64,000 nucleotides of DNA. Origin: an uncultured Candidatus Saccharibacteria bacterium. Lineage in GTDB: Bacteria; Patescibacteriota; Minisyncoccia; UBA6257; Colwellbacteraceae. The notes under the pieces are model-generated. The model had not been told where the DNA came from. It saw only the letters and a list, made by a program, of their open reading frames with translations, and did no database searches. The stretch covers positions 73,049-137,048 of the forward strand of contig CAZXPC010000002.1 of NCBI GenBank assembly GCA_964643135.1, in the 5' to 3' direction. How positions within the stretch are numbered: position 1 is the first letter of the stretch; each line of letters starts with the position of its first letter. This document shows positions 11,549-55,144 of this stretch, in pieces. The translations under genes and the position numbers were made by a program.

Positions 11549-12154
11549 GTGTCCAACTCCCTTTCAGAATCAGAATTGAAAAGACTTTATTTGGATAAGA
11601 AATATTCTTCTGCGAAAATAGCAAAGCTATTTAATTGTTCGATCCACAAAGTAAATTATTGGCTTTTAGCGTATGCGATTCCCAAGAGATCTATTTCGGA
11701 CGCTATTTATGCCAAGCATAATCCTAATGGAGATCCTTTCAAATTCAGTCCACCGAAGAGTATTGAGGATGCTAAACTATTCGGTTTAGGGATTGGCCTG
11801 TATTGGGGAGAGGGGACTAAGGCGAATCAGAATTCAATACGATTGGGCAATACAGATCCCTATTTGATTGAGAAATTTATCGAATTCTTGGTTAGATTTT
11901 TTAATATTCGGAGAGAGGACATGACTTTCGGGTTGCAACTATTTACTGATATAGATCCCAAAAAGGCTCTGGACTTTTGGGCAAAACACCTTAGAATAAA
12001 TAAACATCAGTTCAATAAGCCAGTTGTTACGATATCTGGTTCAATCGGAACCTACCGAAGAAAAAACGAATTCGGAGTTCTCACGGCCATGTATCATAAT
12101 AAAAAGCTCAGAGACTTGATGATTAGTTTGATTGCAGAATATAAGCCAATGTAG
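11549..12154 (+). CDS. LAGLIDADG-type homing-endonuclease-like protein (single motif, N-terminal HTH)
   Basis: Motif LFGLGIGLYWGEGTK matches the LAGLIDADG pattern. The N-terminus has an HTH-like segment. The stop codon overlaps the 5' end of the intron-bearing tRNA gene. Confidence 0.45.
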   Translation: MSNSLSESELKRLYLDKKYSSAKIAKLFNCSIHKVNYWLLAYAIPKRSISDAIYAKHNPNGDPFKFSPPKSIEDAKLFGLGIGLYWGEGTKANQNSIRLGNTDPYLIEKFIEFLVRFFNIRREDMTFGLQLFTDIDPKKALDFWAKHLRINKHQFNKPVVTISGSIGTYRRKNEFGVLTAMYHNKKLRDLMISLIAEYKPM

Positions 12155-12410
12155 CTCAGTCGGTAGAGCAACTCCATGGTGGCTCGCGTAGAAATACAGA
12201 AGCCTGCCCACTAGATCGGTAACGGTTTAGTGAATCCCGAATAACGGTTAATAGCCTGATTAGGGCCAAGACCGTGGCGCAGATAGCTGCGCCCGAACGA
12301 CTGACAAGGGAATCCGATAAAATCGGATTAAGATACAGTCTAGCCCTCATATAACCAAGTTGAGGTGTAAGCGAAGGAGTAGGTCGTCGGTTCAATTCCG
12401 ACCATTGGCT
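12145..12410 (+). tRNA. tRNA-Thr(GGU) interrupted by a ~193-nt group I-like intron between positions 36 and 37
   Basis: 5' exon 12145-12180: GCCAATG-TA-GCTC-AGTCGGTA-GAGC-A-ACTCC-ATGGT. 3' exon 12374-12410: AA-GGAGT-AGGTC-GTCGG-TTCAATT-CCGAC-CATTGGC-T. The last exon nucleotide is U and the last intron nucleotide is G, as group I splicing requires. Confidence 0.6.
12181..12373 (+). ncRNA. Candidate small group I intron in the tRNA-Thr anticodon loop
   Basis: Contains AAGATACAGTCTAGCC (compare group I S element AAGAUAUAGUCC), an upstream GACTGACAAGG (R-like, P7 pairing GACUG/CAGUC) and ACTAGATCGG. Terminal G present. Confidence 0.5.
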
Positions 12411-12603
12411 CATAAATAAAATTGCTCAACTTTATGTTGGGCGATTTTATTTCTATGACATTGTGGTCGAATTGAACGGGAAGGGGGTCGGGAAAACGGT
12501 AGTTTTCCCGTAGCGGAAGGCTTGAAACCGCTGGGTTTCAAAGCGCAAGCCGATGTATATCGACTGAGCAGTGAAATAGCGAAGCGTCCGACCATTGGCT
12601 CAG
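12411..12603 (+). repeat. tRNA-flanking element, copy 1
   Basis: Opens with an inverted degenerate copy of the tRNA 3' arm (ATTGTGGTCGAATTGAACGG), then a conserved core GGGAAGGGGGTCGGGAAAACGGTAGTTTTCCCGTAGCGGAA…AAACCGCTGGGTTT, and ends with a direct copy of the tRNA 3' end lacking the T-loop (AGCGAAGCGTCCGACCATTGGCTCA). Confidence 0.5.
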
Positions 12604-54880: not shown

Positions 54881-55070
54881 CTTGCGGAGCCGAAGGTGGG
54901 AGATCTCACGTCGTCGCTACGCTCCTCCCTAAAACCCAGCGGTTTTAGCTCGCGTCTATCGGCGCTTTTCCGCCACGGGAAAACTCCCGTTTTCCCGACC
55001 CCTTTCCCGTTCGATTCCTTCACCACCAAAATCAAAAAGGGAATGATTTAGCATCATTCCATTCTTGATT
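54881..55070 (-). repeat. tRNA-flanking element, copy 2 (downstream of minus-strand tRNA-Thr(CGU))
   Basis: In tRNA orientation: an inverted degenerate copy of the tRNA 3' arm (GGTGGTGAAGGAATCGAAC), then a core GGGAAAGGGGTCGGGAAAACGGGAGTTTTCCCGTGGCGGAA…AAACCGCTGGGTTT homologous to 12411-12603, then a direct copy of the tRNA 3' end with the T-loop replaced by AGATCT (GACGTGAGATCTCCCACCTTCGGCTCC, plus strand 54884-54908). Confidence 0.5.
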
Positions 55071-55144
55071 TGGAGCCGAAGGTGGGAATCGAACCCACGT
55101 CTATGCTTTACGAAAGCATTGTTCTACCACTGAACTATATCGGC
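55071..55144 (-). tRNA. tRNA-Thr(CGU), CCA encoded; acceptor stem has two mismatches (6:67, 7:66)
   Basis: Reverse complement GCCGATA-TA-GTTC-AGTGGTA-GAAC-A-ATGCT-TTCGTAA-AGCAT-AGACG-GTGGG-TTCGATT-CCCAC-CTTCGGC-T-CCA. Confidence 0.5.

Follow-up and report, generated by a model that had tools for sequence, protein, structure and literature searches.

CPR bacteria (Patescibacteria) have genomes of about 1 Mb with few known mobile elements. Prophage e14 and phage 21, which insert in icd, are 20–40 kb long, carry an integrase and bring a substitute gene 3' end; the displaced pseudo-copy differs mainly synonymously. In CTX-phi attP(+), recombined by XerCD, and in integron attC, recombined by IntI, a pair of inverted arms, separated by about 90 nt, forms a hairpin whose stem imitates the chromosomal target, and one strand exchange followed by replication yields the order target, inverted arm, loop, target. 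The IS110 bridge RNA, the IS200/605 omega/reRNA and the EBS-bearing group II introns offer a further model, in which structured RNAs of about 100–180 nt contain target-matching segments and are encoded with their own recombinase, nuclease or reverse transcriptase. We know of no case in which these guide systems duplicate 16–85 nt of target.

The window, that is, the whole 64,000-nt stretch of DNA analyzed here, contains two segments of common organization downstream of two tRNA genes, as an earlier sequence-only reading had proposed. Both loci contain a 27-nt core, GGGTCGGGAAAACGGNAGTTTTCCCGT, which occurs exactly twice in the window and never in 100 shuffles, and both carry an exact AAACCGCTGGGTTT. 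With a covariance model of the core, the two loci score 85.0 bits (12476–12545, plus strand) and 69.1 bits (54925–55010, minus strand), in support of the conserved structured core claimed for two different tRNAs. No third core copy was found in the 64-kb window, where the next full-length model match reaches only 8.6 bits; the element is thus present at two of the six tRNAs. Its order, constant across the family described below, is the real gene end (T), an AT-rich locus-specific spacer, an inverted arm (S'), a four-helix core, a direct copy of T and the native flank. The gene is therefore left intact and its end is duplicated. Copy 1, at tRNA-Thr(GGU), has the following features.

12145–12410, plus strand: tRNA-Thr(GGU), the intron-bearing target gene (exons located by sequence)
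12145–12180, plus strand: exon 1 of tRNA-Thr(GGU)
12181–12373, plus strand: group-I-like intron of 193 nt in the anticodon loop (weak Intron_gpI match)
12374–12410, plus strand: exon 2 of tRNA-Thr(GGU)
12397–12412, plus strand: real T, the last 16 nt of the tRNA region, TCCGACCATTGGCTCA; upstream repeat copy
12413–12455, plus strand: AT-rich locus-specific spacer hairpin (R/u), unconserved between copies
12456–12477, plus strand: S', the inverted arm and 5' strand of P1 (complementarity to the tRNA)
12478–12488, plus strand: J1/2, purine-rich conserved joiner GGGAAGGGGGU (family consensus GGGAAAGGGGU)
12489–12510, plus strand: P2 hairpin, C-GGGAAAAC-GGUA-GUUUUCCC-G (compensated variants in other copies)
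12511–12521, plus strand: J2/3, UAGCGGAAGGC (consensus GYGGNGGAAG)
12522–12541, plus strand: P3 hairpin, UUGAAACC-GCUG-GGUUUCAA (8/8 pairs changed on both sides)
12542–12586, plus strand: variable 3' region, including J3/4 and a small P4 hairpin (about 12551–12562)
12571–12577, plus strand: GUGAAAU, a variant of the conserved GUGAGAU
12578–12586, plus strand: AGCGAAGCG mini-hairpin
12587–12602, plus strand: T copy, a perfect direct copy of 12397–12412 and 3' strand of P1
12619–12647, plus strand: rpmG promoter, beyond the T copy

Copy 2, at tRNA-Thr(CGU), lies on the other strand.

55074–55144, minus strand: tRNA-Thr(CGU), the target gene, with CCA encoded at 55073–55071
55072–55087, minus strand: real T, TCCCACCTTCGGCTCC
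55028–55071, minus strand: spacer
55060–55040, minus strand: terminator-like hairpin followed by a T-run, inside the spacer
55009–55027, minus strand: S', GGTGGTGAAGGAATCGAAC, with a degenerate acceptor part
54929–55008, minus strand: core
55008–54998, minus strand: J1/2
54997–54976, minus strand: P2
54975–54949, minus strand: J2/3 with an extra 17-nt hairpin
54948–54929, minus strand: P3, CUAAAACC-GCUG-GGUUUUAG
54902–54928, minus strand: variable 3' region, with GUGAGAU at 54909–54903
54886–54901, minus strand: T copy, a perfect direct copy of 55087–55072

From the start of S' to the end of the T copy, the two elements measure 147 nt (copy 1) and 142 nt (copy 2), which leaves no ORF-sized room. 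At both loci the T copy is a perfect 16-nt direct repeat of the 3' end of its own tRNA, and the inverted arm (12456–12477 and 55027–55009) matches the T-loop and T-stem of its own tRNA. In copy 1, AATTGAA within S' is the exact complement of the T-loop TTCAATT, and TGGTCG pairs with CGACCA of the T copy; in copy 2, AATCGAA is the exact complement of the T-loop TTCGATT. The inverted copy of the tRNA 3' arm reported at the start of each segment is real, although a locus-specific spacer hairpin of 43–44 nt precedes it. Two other details of that reading do not hold. The resemblance of the 3' end to the tRNA exon junction, seen in AGCGAAG, is coincidental: GUGAGAU followed by AGCGAAGCG recurs beside unrelated, intron-less tRNAs (L025, L054, L094, L105, L118 and L120). 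Nor is the T-loop precisely deleted from the downstream copy. The direct repeat merely starts at tRNA position ~61, and the preceding 7 nt are the conserved GUGAGAU of the element; in another subfamily the repeat starts at position 53 and the T-loop is kept (L020, L049, L055 and L060). The flank 3' of copy 1 is homologous to the tRNA trailer of element-free relatives. The tRNA-Thr(GGU) gene was missed by both ARAGORN and Rfam, and its orthologues at L121, L123 and L124 lack the intron. A self-splicing group I intron was rejected as the identity of the element itself, as the upstream tRNA is complete without it and the group-I-like intron of tRNA-Thr(GGU) is separate.

Alignment of the two loci showed that the similarity extends beyond tRNA-derived sequence, the shared part being of non-tRNA origin. 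The core hairpin pattern was found in at least 120 genome stretches, nearly all from Patescibacteria; this figure is a lower bound, and the family counts given below cover the matches listed. Because the core occurs in other genomes and the similarity is not confined to tRNA-derived parts, the finding stands. The covariance model recovers the listed copies at 50–92 bits, and the elements keep a constant size of ~100–190 nt and contain no ORF. The two window loci are thus members of a large, apparently undescribed Patescibacteria family of folded elements. That the window holds only two copies would also fit chance similarity or one local duplication in this genome. We give this explanation practically no credence, given the shuffles, the two model scores and the matching stretches elsewhere, and given that the two copies differ in arms, spacers, P3 sequences and P4.

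The earlier reading had failed to match the segments to a described element class, and database searches agree. Against Rfam 15 (4227 models), only tRNAs pass the gathering threshold in the window and in 15 related loci; at E values up to 10, both loci give just spurious miRNA and leader matches that reflect the long hairpin. The element has no match in phage records, plasmid records or viral contigs, and full-text literature searches, one of them for the core sequence, returned no description of it. Some known RNAs do resemble it in part. Its 5' arm, GGAAUCGAACGGGA, is similar to the 5' region of tmRNA, its 3' end consists of a tRNA acceptor strand and tmRNA_permuted gives a weak match; the likeness of the arm arises because it is the complement of the T-loop. 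A tmRNA or permuted tmRNA was rejected, as tmRNA_permuted scores 14.7 bits against a threshold of 47 and beta_tmRNA 8.1 against 84, ARAGORN gives no match, both window copies lack a T-loop at the 3' end, and neither a resume codon nor a tag ORF is present. Furthermore, there are many copies per genome, and the GGAAUCGAACGGGA-like motif is absent at protein-gene targets. The element also has what we take to be resemblances to RNase P CR-I and to SRP RNA (GGAAAG..UC..GGG; GGAGGAAGGCAGC), but either identity is unsupported by Rfam and does not fit an element present many times in a genome. A riboswitch or leader was discarded since the downstream gene is inconsistent and the rpmG promoter lies only after the element. 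One core frame reads K-G-V-G-K-T; it has no start codon, its third positions are conserved and the hairpin covaries, and a coding origin was rejected.

Among the four helices of the core, P2 and P3 form conserved hairpins whereas P4 varies; the joiners are rich in purines (GGGAAAGGGGU, GYGGNGGAAG and AGGAG). The core is closed by P1, a helix whose two strands are both set by the target: the 5' strand, S', complements the inner part of the gene end, and the 3' strand is the start of the T copy. In the core alignment, 95% of cells are paired and 14 of 17 pairs show changes on both sides; none of 500 shuffles reaches the observed values. P2 is wholly re-coded in some copies (GGAGGGGA/UCCCCUCC in L096, GGGGAAAA/UUUUCCCC in L011), P4 also has compensated changes, and P3 of the two window copies differs by two compensated pairs. 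A 4-bp pseudoknot between J2/3 and the P3 loop (GNGG:CCGC) is possible, with weak support. Several contigs of single MAGs carry copies, which are diverged within a genome, and tandem arrays are found in L003, L019, L056, L081, L104 and L119. The diverged copies of one genome keep the structure through compensatory changes, as seen in the window copies, in L048 versus L055 and in the tandem pair of L056.

Such conservation raises the question whether the copies are host-beneficial small RNA genes, transcribed with or just after a tRNA, whose mobility merely spreads the family. The third option of the sequence-only reading, a tRNA-linked structured RNA, was of this kind; the conserved fold it supposed is supported, but in the protein-gene class described below the element is antisense to its target. 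As an RNA gene, the element could use P1 as a tRNA-like acceptor/T-stem end that tRNA enzymes process or protect, S' could base-pair with the neighboring pre-tRNA at its T-arm, and the 3' tail of protein-gene copies, antisense to the start of the fusA or typA mRNA, could regulate the translation apparatus. The strongly conserved junction sequences and the compensatory changes between paralogues of one genome speak for this reading, as does a direct copy that is conserved beyond the needs of P1 pairing. At L020, the tRNA terminator is found only after the T copy, and the tRNA and the element must therefore be co-transcribed. Copy 2 of the window, on the other hand, is separated from its tRNA by the terminator-like hairpin, and no promoter consensus was found 5' of either window copy. 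Folding energies of the whole element, in keeping with an RNA gene, favor the tRNA-sense strand over its complement in 71 of 80 copies, but the strand signal is weak: mismatches in P3 are 5 of the G-U type versus 3 of the A-C type, and the forward strand itself is G-rich.

A tRNA of any isotype lies 30–230 nt upstream on the same strand in 71 of the 126 copies among the matches listed, and at least 17 isotypes are represented. The final 15–16 nt of the local tRNA recur in the direct copy in about 60 of 67 cases; in about 60 of 67, too, the inverted arm matches the T-loop and T-stem of that tRNA, the match fading toward the acceptor end. Exact complementarity of the arm to the local T-loop variant is seen in 41 of 69 copies, compared with 0–5% for non-local variants. 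In this class, an internal loop beside P1 places AUCGAAC opposite GUGAGAU. Other copies have the same geometry but lie antisense and upstream of protein genes, among them typA (L012), fusA (L042, L044, L063, L067 and L108), dinB, a murD-like gene and a GT4 gene, with direct repeats of 52–71 nt in the fusA/typA type. Of the explanations offered by the sequence-only reading, a small non-autonomous tRNA-targeting element fits best, yet it is too narrow in view of these insertions at the 5' ends of protein genes. Most of the known targets belong to the translation machinery (tRNAs, EF-G and TypA), as might suit an RNA gene. The fusA-type element sits antisense in the rpsG-fusA operon spacer, where the operon transcript would contain its reverse complement; this speaks against an RNA gene.

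Direct repeats of tRNA 3' ends, present at both window loci, are the classic signature of integration, and the segments had been suggested to be decayed ends of an integrative element. With the islands and prophages of tyrosine integrases, the element shares insertion at a tRNA 3' end, a gene kept intact by a replacement copy and the 3'-end direct repeat. It differs in having no integrase, a length of only ~100–190 nt, a folded core, a target-specific inverted arm and dozens of targets that include protein-gene 5' ends. Relics of attL and attR deleted down to ~185 nt would not be expected to retain, at 120 or more loci in many lineages, a ~75-nt core with compensatory changes; the interior is a conserved covarying structure, not a random remnant. 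The constant size, the specificity of the inverted arm for the local tRNA, the same architecture at protein genes and the lack of matches in phage, plasmid and viral collections point the same way. Clustering of 1302 neighbor ORFs from the 120 loci listed revealed no recurrent recombinase, integrase, transposase or reverse transcriptase, nor integrase fragment, and no recurrent protein family other than the targets themselves. We therefore regard an origin from integrase islands as very improbable.

Comparing filled and empty sites shows how the target is altered. In the filled fusA allele (L044 and L128–L131), 111 unique nt accompany two perfect 66-nt copies of the start of fusA. The empty allele is that of L132, which over 3.6 kb is 99.9% identical: native upstream sequence, one T and fusA follow one another, with 141/141 nt matching the flanks. 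The two alleles differ by 177 bp, made up of the 111 unique nucleotides and the perfect 66-bp duplication. In L133 (84% EF-G identity), rpsG and fusA are 15 nt apart. At the locus of copy 1, the native trailer follows tRNA-Thr(GGU) and the element is missing in the relatives L121, L122 and L124 (SecA 80% and 74%), whereas L125 (67%) carries an element whose arms match its own, different acceptor stem. Judged from these aligned alleles, the element is an insertion. Because it comes and goes among close relatives, it looks like a new kind of tiny mobile element; its absence there and its presence at only two of six window tRNAs further indicate that it is dispensable at any one locus, which is not what an RNA gene of use to the host would predict. 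The L132 contig begins exactly k = 141 nt before the first allele-specific base, as a k141 assembly-graph branch would, so both alleles probably coexist in that sample. It is possible that L132 is a chimera through the 66-nt repeat, and its empty allele could be a precise deletion through the repeat, not the ancestral state. JGI metagenome contigs scanned for the empty junction gave no second empty fusA allele. Other leads gave no further empty allele: the exact L33 protein is not on record, the FtsZ neighbor of L020 was found on a single contig only and the synteny of SecA P0075 differs.

Across the family, the duplication ranges from 13 to 85 nt and is sometimes perfect, and the duplicate begins exactly at the core boundary. 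These properties are also what a SINE-like retroelement would produce, if the T tail of its RNA hybridized to the target, a nick at the core/T boundary primed reverse transcription and a staggered second nick set the variable duplication. The order at L044 (T, reverse-complemented core, reverse-complemented S', spacer, T) is the one expected if an S'-core-T RNA were copied beginning at the 3' end of T. No reverse transcriptase was seen to recur near the copies, however, and a published survey reports group II introns to be absent from Patescibacteria (PMC13011429). The CCA status differs between repeat copies in both directions, which leaves no sign that mature tRNA served as the template. Between the two typA starts of L012, 11 codon differences are synonymous and 1 is non-synonymous; the starts look like the gene ends of two lineages, a pattern that fresh duplication followed by neutral decay would not leave. 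Retroposition thus seems improbable. In the tRNA class, the repeat ends 0–5 nt past the discriminator in 33 of 41 copies, where conservation between lineages stops. Import of gene ends from another lineage would give the pattern seen in the typA starts and in these repeat ends. The typA starts resemble e14 and phage 21 in the synonymous type of difference; in those prophages a 3' end is substituted, and here 111 nt and a duplication replace a 5' end.

Based on these observations, we suggest that both loci are probably, though by no means certainly, copies of a non-autonomous mobile family, confined to Patescibacteria as sampled, that enters by recombination inside T. The chromosome would recombine with a molecule that already carries T, spacer, S' and core, possibly a small circle or incoming DNA, and a single Campbell-type crossover would give the exact order observed. 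As the crossover regenerates the target, it would also explain the tandem arrays. A trans-acting factor might recognize the folded P1-core, in which P1 would mimic the target duplex; such recognition would be formally like that of the folded single-stranded attP of CTX-phi or of integron attC. We infer this mechanism from geometry. The order of parts is the same as in those systems, and the unpaired bubble of their stems would parallel AUCGAAC facing GUGAGAU; a folded single-strand recombination site of this type would agree with the element in geometry. The arms of CTX-phi and attC, however, are fixed (dif, attI) and bound by the recombinase, whereas the arms of the element change with each target, no recombinase is linked to it and its 'loop' is a conserved multi-helix structure. 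Miniature elements of the MITE, REP/REPIN, Correia, BOX and RUP kinds are likewise short, non-coding, multi-copy, foldable and non-autonomous. They have fixed terminal inverted repeats of their own and short fixed duplications; in the element the terminal helix is target-derived, the duplication is long and variable, and insertion is restricted to the ends of conserved genes. As expected of a mobile element, an otherwise identical site was found both occupied and empty, subject to the assembly branch at L132, and multiple sites are occupied within a genome.

Several observations weigh against recombination inside T. Diverged copies that keep their structure suggest that purifying selection has long acted on each of them, a situation more typical of useful RNA genes than of a recently bursting parasite. 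Plain homologous recombination leaves the re-specification of S' for each new target unexplained, and a double-stranded circle of 170–250 bp would be strained. Moreover, S' follows the local T-loop also in copies whose direct repeat, the P1 partner of S', does not contain it; recombination offers no reason for this, and it counts in favor of an RNA gene. An RNA gene, for its part, leaves the origin of matching arms at new loci unaccounted for, and we consider it possible but rather unlikely that the copies are host-beneficial RNA genes.

The element might also be a programmable, guide-directed insertion device. S' (8–20 nt, partly in the open loop facing GUGAGAU) would find the target by pairing, the core would recruit host recombination or repair in trans, and the element would insert beside the match, duplicating the gene end. 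It shares size and target-matching segments with the RNAs of IS110, IS200/605 and group II introns, and it exposes AUCGAAC in the internal loop beside P1; existing Rfam models for guide-bearing mobile-element RNAs do not match it. The device would be comparable in principle to IS110 bridge RNAs, yet physically apart from an enzyme gene. We hold this possibility to be unlikely; if true, it would represent a protein-less, retargetable mobile element whose specificity can be rewritten through one arm.

If the family is mobile, as we favor, CPR bacteria hold abundant tiny structured elements that are reported by no annotation pipeline and whose insertion sites are confined to the ends of the most strongly conserved genes (tRNAs, EF-G, TypA and DinB), which stay intact. 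Such elements would explain stretches of intergenic DNA, pseudo gene starts and partial tRNA copies, and may explain some assembly breaks. A terminal helix dictated by the target would be a new mobile architecture, and would point to either a new recombination route or a guide-based targeting that could be re-engineered. The imported gene ends would serve as a natural marker for horizontal exchange among uncultivated lineages. Were the copies functional RNAs instead, they would make up one of the most widely distributed bacterial RNA families still lacking annotation, linked to the genes of tRNAs and translation factors.

The neighboring sequences contain one other recurrent feature. An unusual ORF with an HTH and a LAGLIDADG-like motif, for which no Pfam or PDB match was found, is docked on tRNA 5' ends at 6 of the 120 loci, independently of the element.

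Downstream of both tRNA-Thr genes of the window lies one segment each, with its parts in identical order:

12145–12410, plus strand: intron-bearing tRNA-Thr(GGU)
12456–12602, plus strand: copy 1 of the element
55144–55074, minus strand: tRNA-Thr(CGU)
55027–54886, minus strand: copy 2 of the element

The core common to the two copies, GGGTCGGGAAAACGGNAGTTTTCCCGT, occurs exactly twice in the 64 kb and in none of 100 shuffles, and a covariance model built from other genomes scores the copies at 85.0 and 69.1 bits. Given these values, the similarity of the two loci is real and far beyond chance. A second stretch, AAACCGCTGGGTTT, is also present exactly at both loci. In a pairwise alignment the identity is centred on about 65 nt outside the tRNA-derived parts; the two copies have different spacers, 3′ regions and tRNA-derived ends. 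No full-model match above 8.6 bits was found in the rest of the window, so the four other tRNAs in it carry no element. The pairing of these loci, with a common core and a shared organization, was first noticed in the sequence-only reading; it is borne out, and it extends to a family in many genomes. The motif AGCGAAG, which had been taken for the tRNA exon junction, also adjoins intron-less tRNAs of other isotypes, and its likeness to the junction is therefore a coincidence. In an Rfam alignment, tRNA-Thr(CGU) (55074–55144, minus strand) has non-canonical U6-U67 and A7-C66 at the base of its acceptor stem. It encodes CCA; tRNA-Thr(GGU) does not.

Using an exact pattern for the P2 hairpin and its flank (GGTCGGGAAAACNNNNGTTTTCCCG), with one genome per species, we find this hairpin in at least 120 genome stretches. 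Read on the tRNA strand, the parts of the element (P, helices; J, joiners) are:

P1, 5′ strand (inverted arm, S′): variable, dictated by the target
J1/2: GGGAAAGGGGU
P2: C-GGGAAAAC-NNNN-GUUUUCCC-G
J2/3: GYGGNGGAAG, sometimes followed by an extra hairpin
P3: xxxAAACC-GNNG-GGUUUxxx
J3/4: AGGAG or AAAA
P4: hairpin, variable
Closing motif: GAC(G); GUGAGAU in many tRNA-linked copies, sometimes with AGCGAAGCG next
P1, 3′ strand: start of the direct target copy

Across 123 distinct matches, 95.3% of cells are paired and 14 of 17 pairs have changed on both sides. None of 500 shuffles reached the observed helix values, and pairing falls to 57–70% when the partner is slid by one column. P3 has been re-coded many times (UUGAAACC/GGUUUCAA, CUAAAACC/GGUUUUAG and CACGAACC/GGUUCGUG, among others), and two compensated pairs differ between copies 1 and 2. 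The sequence of P2 is fixed by the search pattern used; in divergent copies recovered by the model it is wholly compensated: GGAGGGGA/UCCCCUCC (L096), GGGGAAAA/UUUUCCCC (L011) and GGGGAAAC/GUUUCCCC (L075). Compensated changes in P4 occur inside one subfamily. A 4-bp pseudoknot of GNGG in J2/3 with CCGC at the P3 loop is possible and weakly supported.

The outer helix is tied to the neighbouring gene. Among the matches listed, 71 of 126 copies have a tRNA 30–230 nt upstream on the same strand, and the targets include at least 17 isotypes. In about 60 of 67 such pairs the core is followed by a direct copy of the last 15–16 nt of the tRNA. In about 60 it is preceded by sequence that reverse-complements the T-loop and the T-stem 3′ strand. 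This second match weakens toward the acceptor end, so that P1 always covers the T-stem at minimum and is 0–9 bp longer depending on the copy. Of 69 copies, 41 contain the exact antisense of their local T-loop variant, whereas beside other variants a given antisense is found in only 0–5% of cases, which indicates that the inverted arm is specific to the local tRNA. This specificity is kept in a subfamily whose direct copy begins at position 61, with GUGAGAU in the T-loop's place; there, AUCGAAC opposite GUGAGAU forms an internal loop.

Copies at protein genes have the same geometry and lie immediately upstream of the gene, on the other strand. At typA in locus L012, a 39-nt typA pseudo-start is followed by the reverse-complement core, by GTCAACGTGCGC, which is antisense to the AHVD codons, and, after 17 nt, by the real typA. 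Five fusA copies (L042, L044, L063, L067, L108) have repeats of 52–71 nt, spanning the AHIDA codons to a few nucleotides past the start codon. The element also sits at dinB (HLDMDA), a murD-like gene (VMGLG) and a GT4 glycosyltransferase (TWGG). Among the matches listed, the protein family found most often beside the core is that of the translational GTPases (15 loci); in 11 of the 15 the gene is on the opposite strand with the element upstream, at a median distance of 49 nt. The general order outward from a gene is its real end (T), spacer, S′, core, a direct repeat of T (T copy) and native flank. A direct repeat scoring at least 24 is found in 80 of the 113 copies with sufficient flank among the matches listed.

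Two side observations concern the GTPase genes. The 5′ arm of P2 with its flank, GGUCGGGAAAAC (12486–12497 and 54989–55000 in the window; 1355–1531 in L044), resembles the P-loop codons GAY-CAY-GGN-AAR-ACN, and right at the point of insertion the core start GGGAAAGG aligns with GGN-AAR codons in fusA and typA; a microhomology favouring GTPase genes as targets could account for this, or it may be a coincidence. In addition, the pseudo-start of fusA (L044 1289–1470) or typA (L012 1756–1911) opens an ORF through the reverse complement of the core. Its stop lies 9 nt (L044) or 4 nt (L012) ahead of the real start codon, a spacing that would allow translational coupling to the real gene.

Comparison of filled and empty loci shows that the element is an insertion that comes and goes between relatives. 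At fusA in L044, two perfect 66-nt copies of ATTT-ATG...GACGC flank 111 unique nt, made up of the reverse-complement core, a 12-nt inverted arm and a 22-nt spacer. Four more assemblies (L128–L131) with an EF-G protein identical to that of L044 have the same filled arrangement. The contig L132 has 3 mismatches in 3.6 kb and runs from native upstream sequence through one T into fusA, without the element; its junction is identical to the L044 flanks at 141 of 141 nt. In the next relative, L133 (EF-G 84% identical), the rpsG-fusA spacing is 15 nt. The first allele-specific base of L132 is base 142 of a k141 contig, as expected at an assembly-graph branch, so the filled and empty alleles probably both exist in its sample. 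Chimeric reads through the 66-nt repeat could possibly have produced the empty junction, and scans of JGI contigs for a second empty fusA allele found none. At the tRNA-Thr(GGU) locus, relatives ranked by SecA identity to the window have the following arrangements:

L121 and L122 (80%): intron-less tRNA, other sequence directly after; no element
L123 (75%): GGGACGGAATTGAACGGG after the tRNA
L124 (74%): tRNA, then 46 nt and rpmG; no element
L127 (69%): tRNA with intron; no element
L125 (67%): element present, arms fitting its own, different acceptor stem

Past the T copy, the window sequence (GGAATTG...CTTGCCATTTTTAC) has its homologue in the native trailer and the rpmG promoter region of the element-free relatives. 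In L123, which has no core, the 18-nt GGGACGGAATTGAACGGG (586–603), directly 3′ of the tRNA, is closer to the inverted arm of the window (GAATTGAACGGG matches at 12 of 12 nt) than to the complement of the L123 T-loop; it may be the remnant of a lost copy. The contigs of five close relatives of the window genome (L121, L122, L123, L124 and L126) stop about 0.1–1.5 kb upstream of secA, near the tRNA-Thr/rpmG region, which suggests that this locus is a frequent assembly breakpoint, possibly through repeats or population heterogeneity.

With a conserved folded core and filled and empty loci, the small non-autonomous element that the sequence-only reading listed among its options is the best-supported interpretation, which we hold with moderate confidence. 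How it may insert is indicated by the repeats. Each locus has its own spacer between gene end and S′; terminator-like hairpins are frequent in the spacers of the tRNA class, and a different terminator comes after the T copy. The tRNA-class repeat stops 0–5 nt past the discriminator in 33 of 41 copies and 12–65 nt further in six. Its end is the limit of sequence conservation between lineages, not a feature recognisable by a DNA-cutting enzyme. CCA status differs between gene and copy in some cases, in either direction. The two typA starts of L012 differ synonymously at 11 codons and non-synonymously at 1, indicating that both evolved within working genes. Together, the spacers, repeat ends, CCA status and typA divergence suggest that the gene-proximal T and spacer were imported with the element. 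The distal T copy would be the displaced resident gene end, as happens where a prophage brings its own replacement for the end of a gene. One crossover inside T, between the chromosome and a molecule of T, spacer, S′ and core, would give exactly the observed order and recreate the target, in agreement with the tandem arrays at L003, L019, L056, L081, L104 and L119.

Plain homologous recombination does not explain the need for a conserved folded core, the re-specification of S′ for each new target, or the reach of S′ past the repeat and over the T-loop. Some role, as recombination substrate or as guide, must therefore fall to the folded P1-core. In CTX-phi and at integron attC sites, a folded single strand whose stem imitates the target is integrated; integration of this type, with a stem of S′ and S, would formally give the same order. 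The 1302 neighbouring ORFs contain no recurrent recombinase, transposase or reverse transcriptase family among the matches listed. A retroelement mechanism appears unlikely, and that the direct repeats are relic att sites is very improbable.

The main rival, a family of host RNA genes, is possible and in our view doubtful. The following strand and transcription data bear on the choice between RNA and DNA as the acting polymer. In 71 of 80 copies the more stable fold is that of the tRNA-sense strand (mean difference 4.9 kcal/mol); this strand is, however, G-rich, and an unbiased count of P3 mismatch types gives 5 G-T versus 3 A-C. In L020 the tRNA terminator is located only past the T copy, so by its sequence tRNA and element must be co-transcribed. 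Copy 2 of the window has a terminator-like hairpin between tRNA and element, and no promoter consensus was found upstream of either window copy. A transcript of the fusA or typA operon would carry the element in reverse complement. Should a host RNA gene turn out to be moved by ordinary recombination, what is new would shrink to an RNA family; should S′ be a guide, it would be a new targeting principle. No described class known to us combines a conserved multi-helix core with a closing helix made of complement and copy of the target and with a 16–85-nt duplication of a conserved gene's end.

Record titles among the matches listed are almost all Patescibacteria: ‘Saccharibacteria’, Paceibacteria/Parcubacteria, Jorgensen-, Kaiser-, Taylor-, Lipton-, Colwell-, Nomura-, Moranii- and Berkelbacteria, Kazan and WS2. 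A few MAGs labelled Bdellovibrionales, Gammaproteobacteria, Syntrophaceae or Bathyarchaeia contain full cores, and mis-binning is suspected. The Desulfobacterales match L027 was rejected with the core model as a chance hairpin. By its SecA relatives, the window genome resembles Paceibacteria/Colwellbacteria. Among the matches listed, several MAGs have more than one contig with the pattern, and some contigs have two copies. None of 4227 Rfam families matched the element at the gathering threshold; permissive searches gave only spurious hairpin matches and tmRNA_permuted at 14.7 bits (threshold 47). No match was found in IMG/VR viral contigs, 50,697 phage records or 72,556 plasmid records, and full-text literature searches, including one with the core sequence itself, found no description of the element. 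At eight loci (L005, L008, L021, L024, L032, L061, L088, L110) the core lies inside a larger hairpin-rich repeat of about 300–500 nt, with recurring motifs GTCTCCCTTnGGAGGGAG, CCTCCTCCAAAGGAGGAC and GGGGCGACCTTCTAGTCGCC. This repeat recurs within and between genomes, has no Rfam match, and may be a composite or a bigger relative of the element.

Other sequences also occupy the tRNA loci. The tRNA-Thr(GGU) of the window, missed by ARAGORN and by Rfam, contains a 193-nt insert (12181–12373) after the anticodon GGU, with U as the last base of the 5′ exon and G as that of the insert. The insert matches Intron_gpI weakly (12.4 bits) and agrees with a report of group I introns in tRNAs of Patescibacteria (PMC13011429). 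The gene is uninterrupted in the relatives L121, L123 and L124; a homologous insert is present in L127 and L055. An ORF family of 200–230 aa, with the motif GLxLYWxEGxK, a LAGLIDADG-like appearance and an N-terminal HTH in one member, has no Pfam or PDB match:

11549–12154, plus strand: member in the window
L011 5475–6161; L023 135–764; L055 7651–7998; L071 1800–2471; L077 7062–7694; L096 6473–7150: members in other genomes

Six of the seven end overlapping, or within about 15 nt of, a tRNA 5′ end (Thr, Met, Arg, Gly, Ala, ‘cta’), and in L055 an element copy lies between ORF and tRNA. The ORF has the appearance of a free-standing gene of homing-endonuclease type that is docked at the 5′ ends of tRNAs, and would be a second occupant of these loci, independent of the element. 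Finally, tRNA-Lys in L020 (5130–5250, minus strand) shows another type of partial tRNA duplication, 5′ of a gene with the element on its 3′ side: a 34-nt copy of upstream sequence plus tRNA positions 1–22 is followed by a 47-nt filler, which includes a copy of anticodon-loop sequence, and then by the complete tRNA-Lys.
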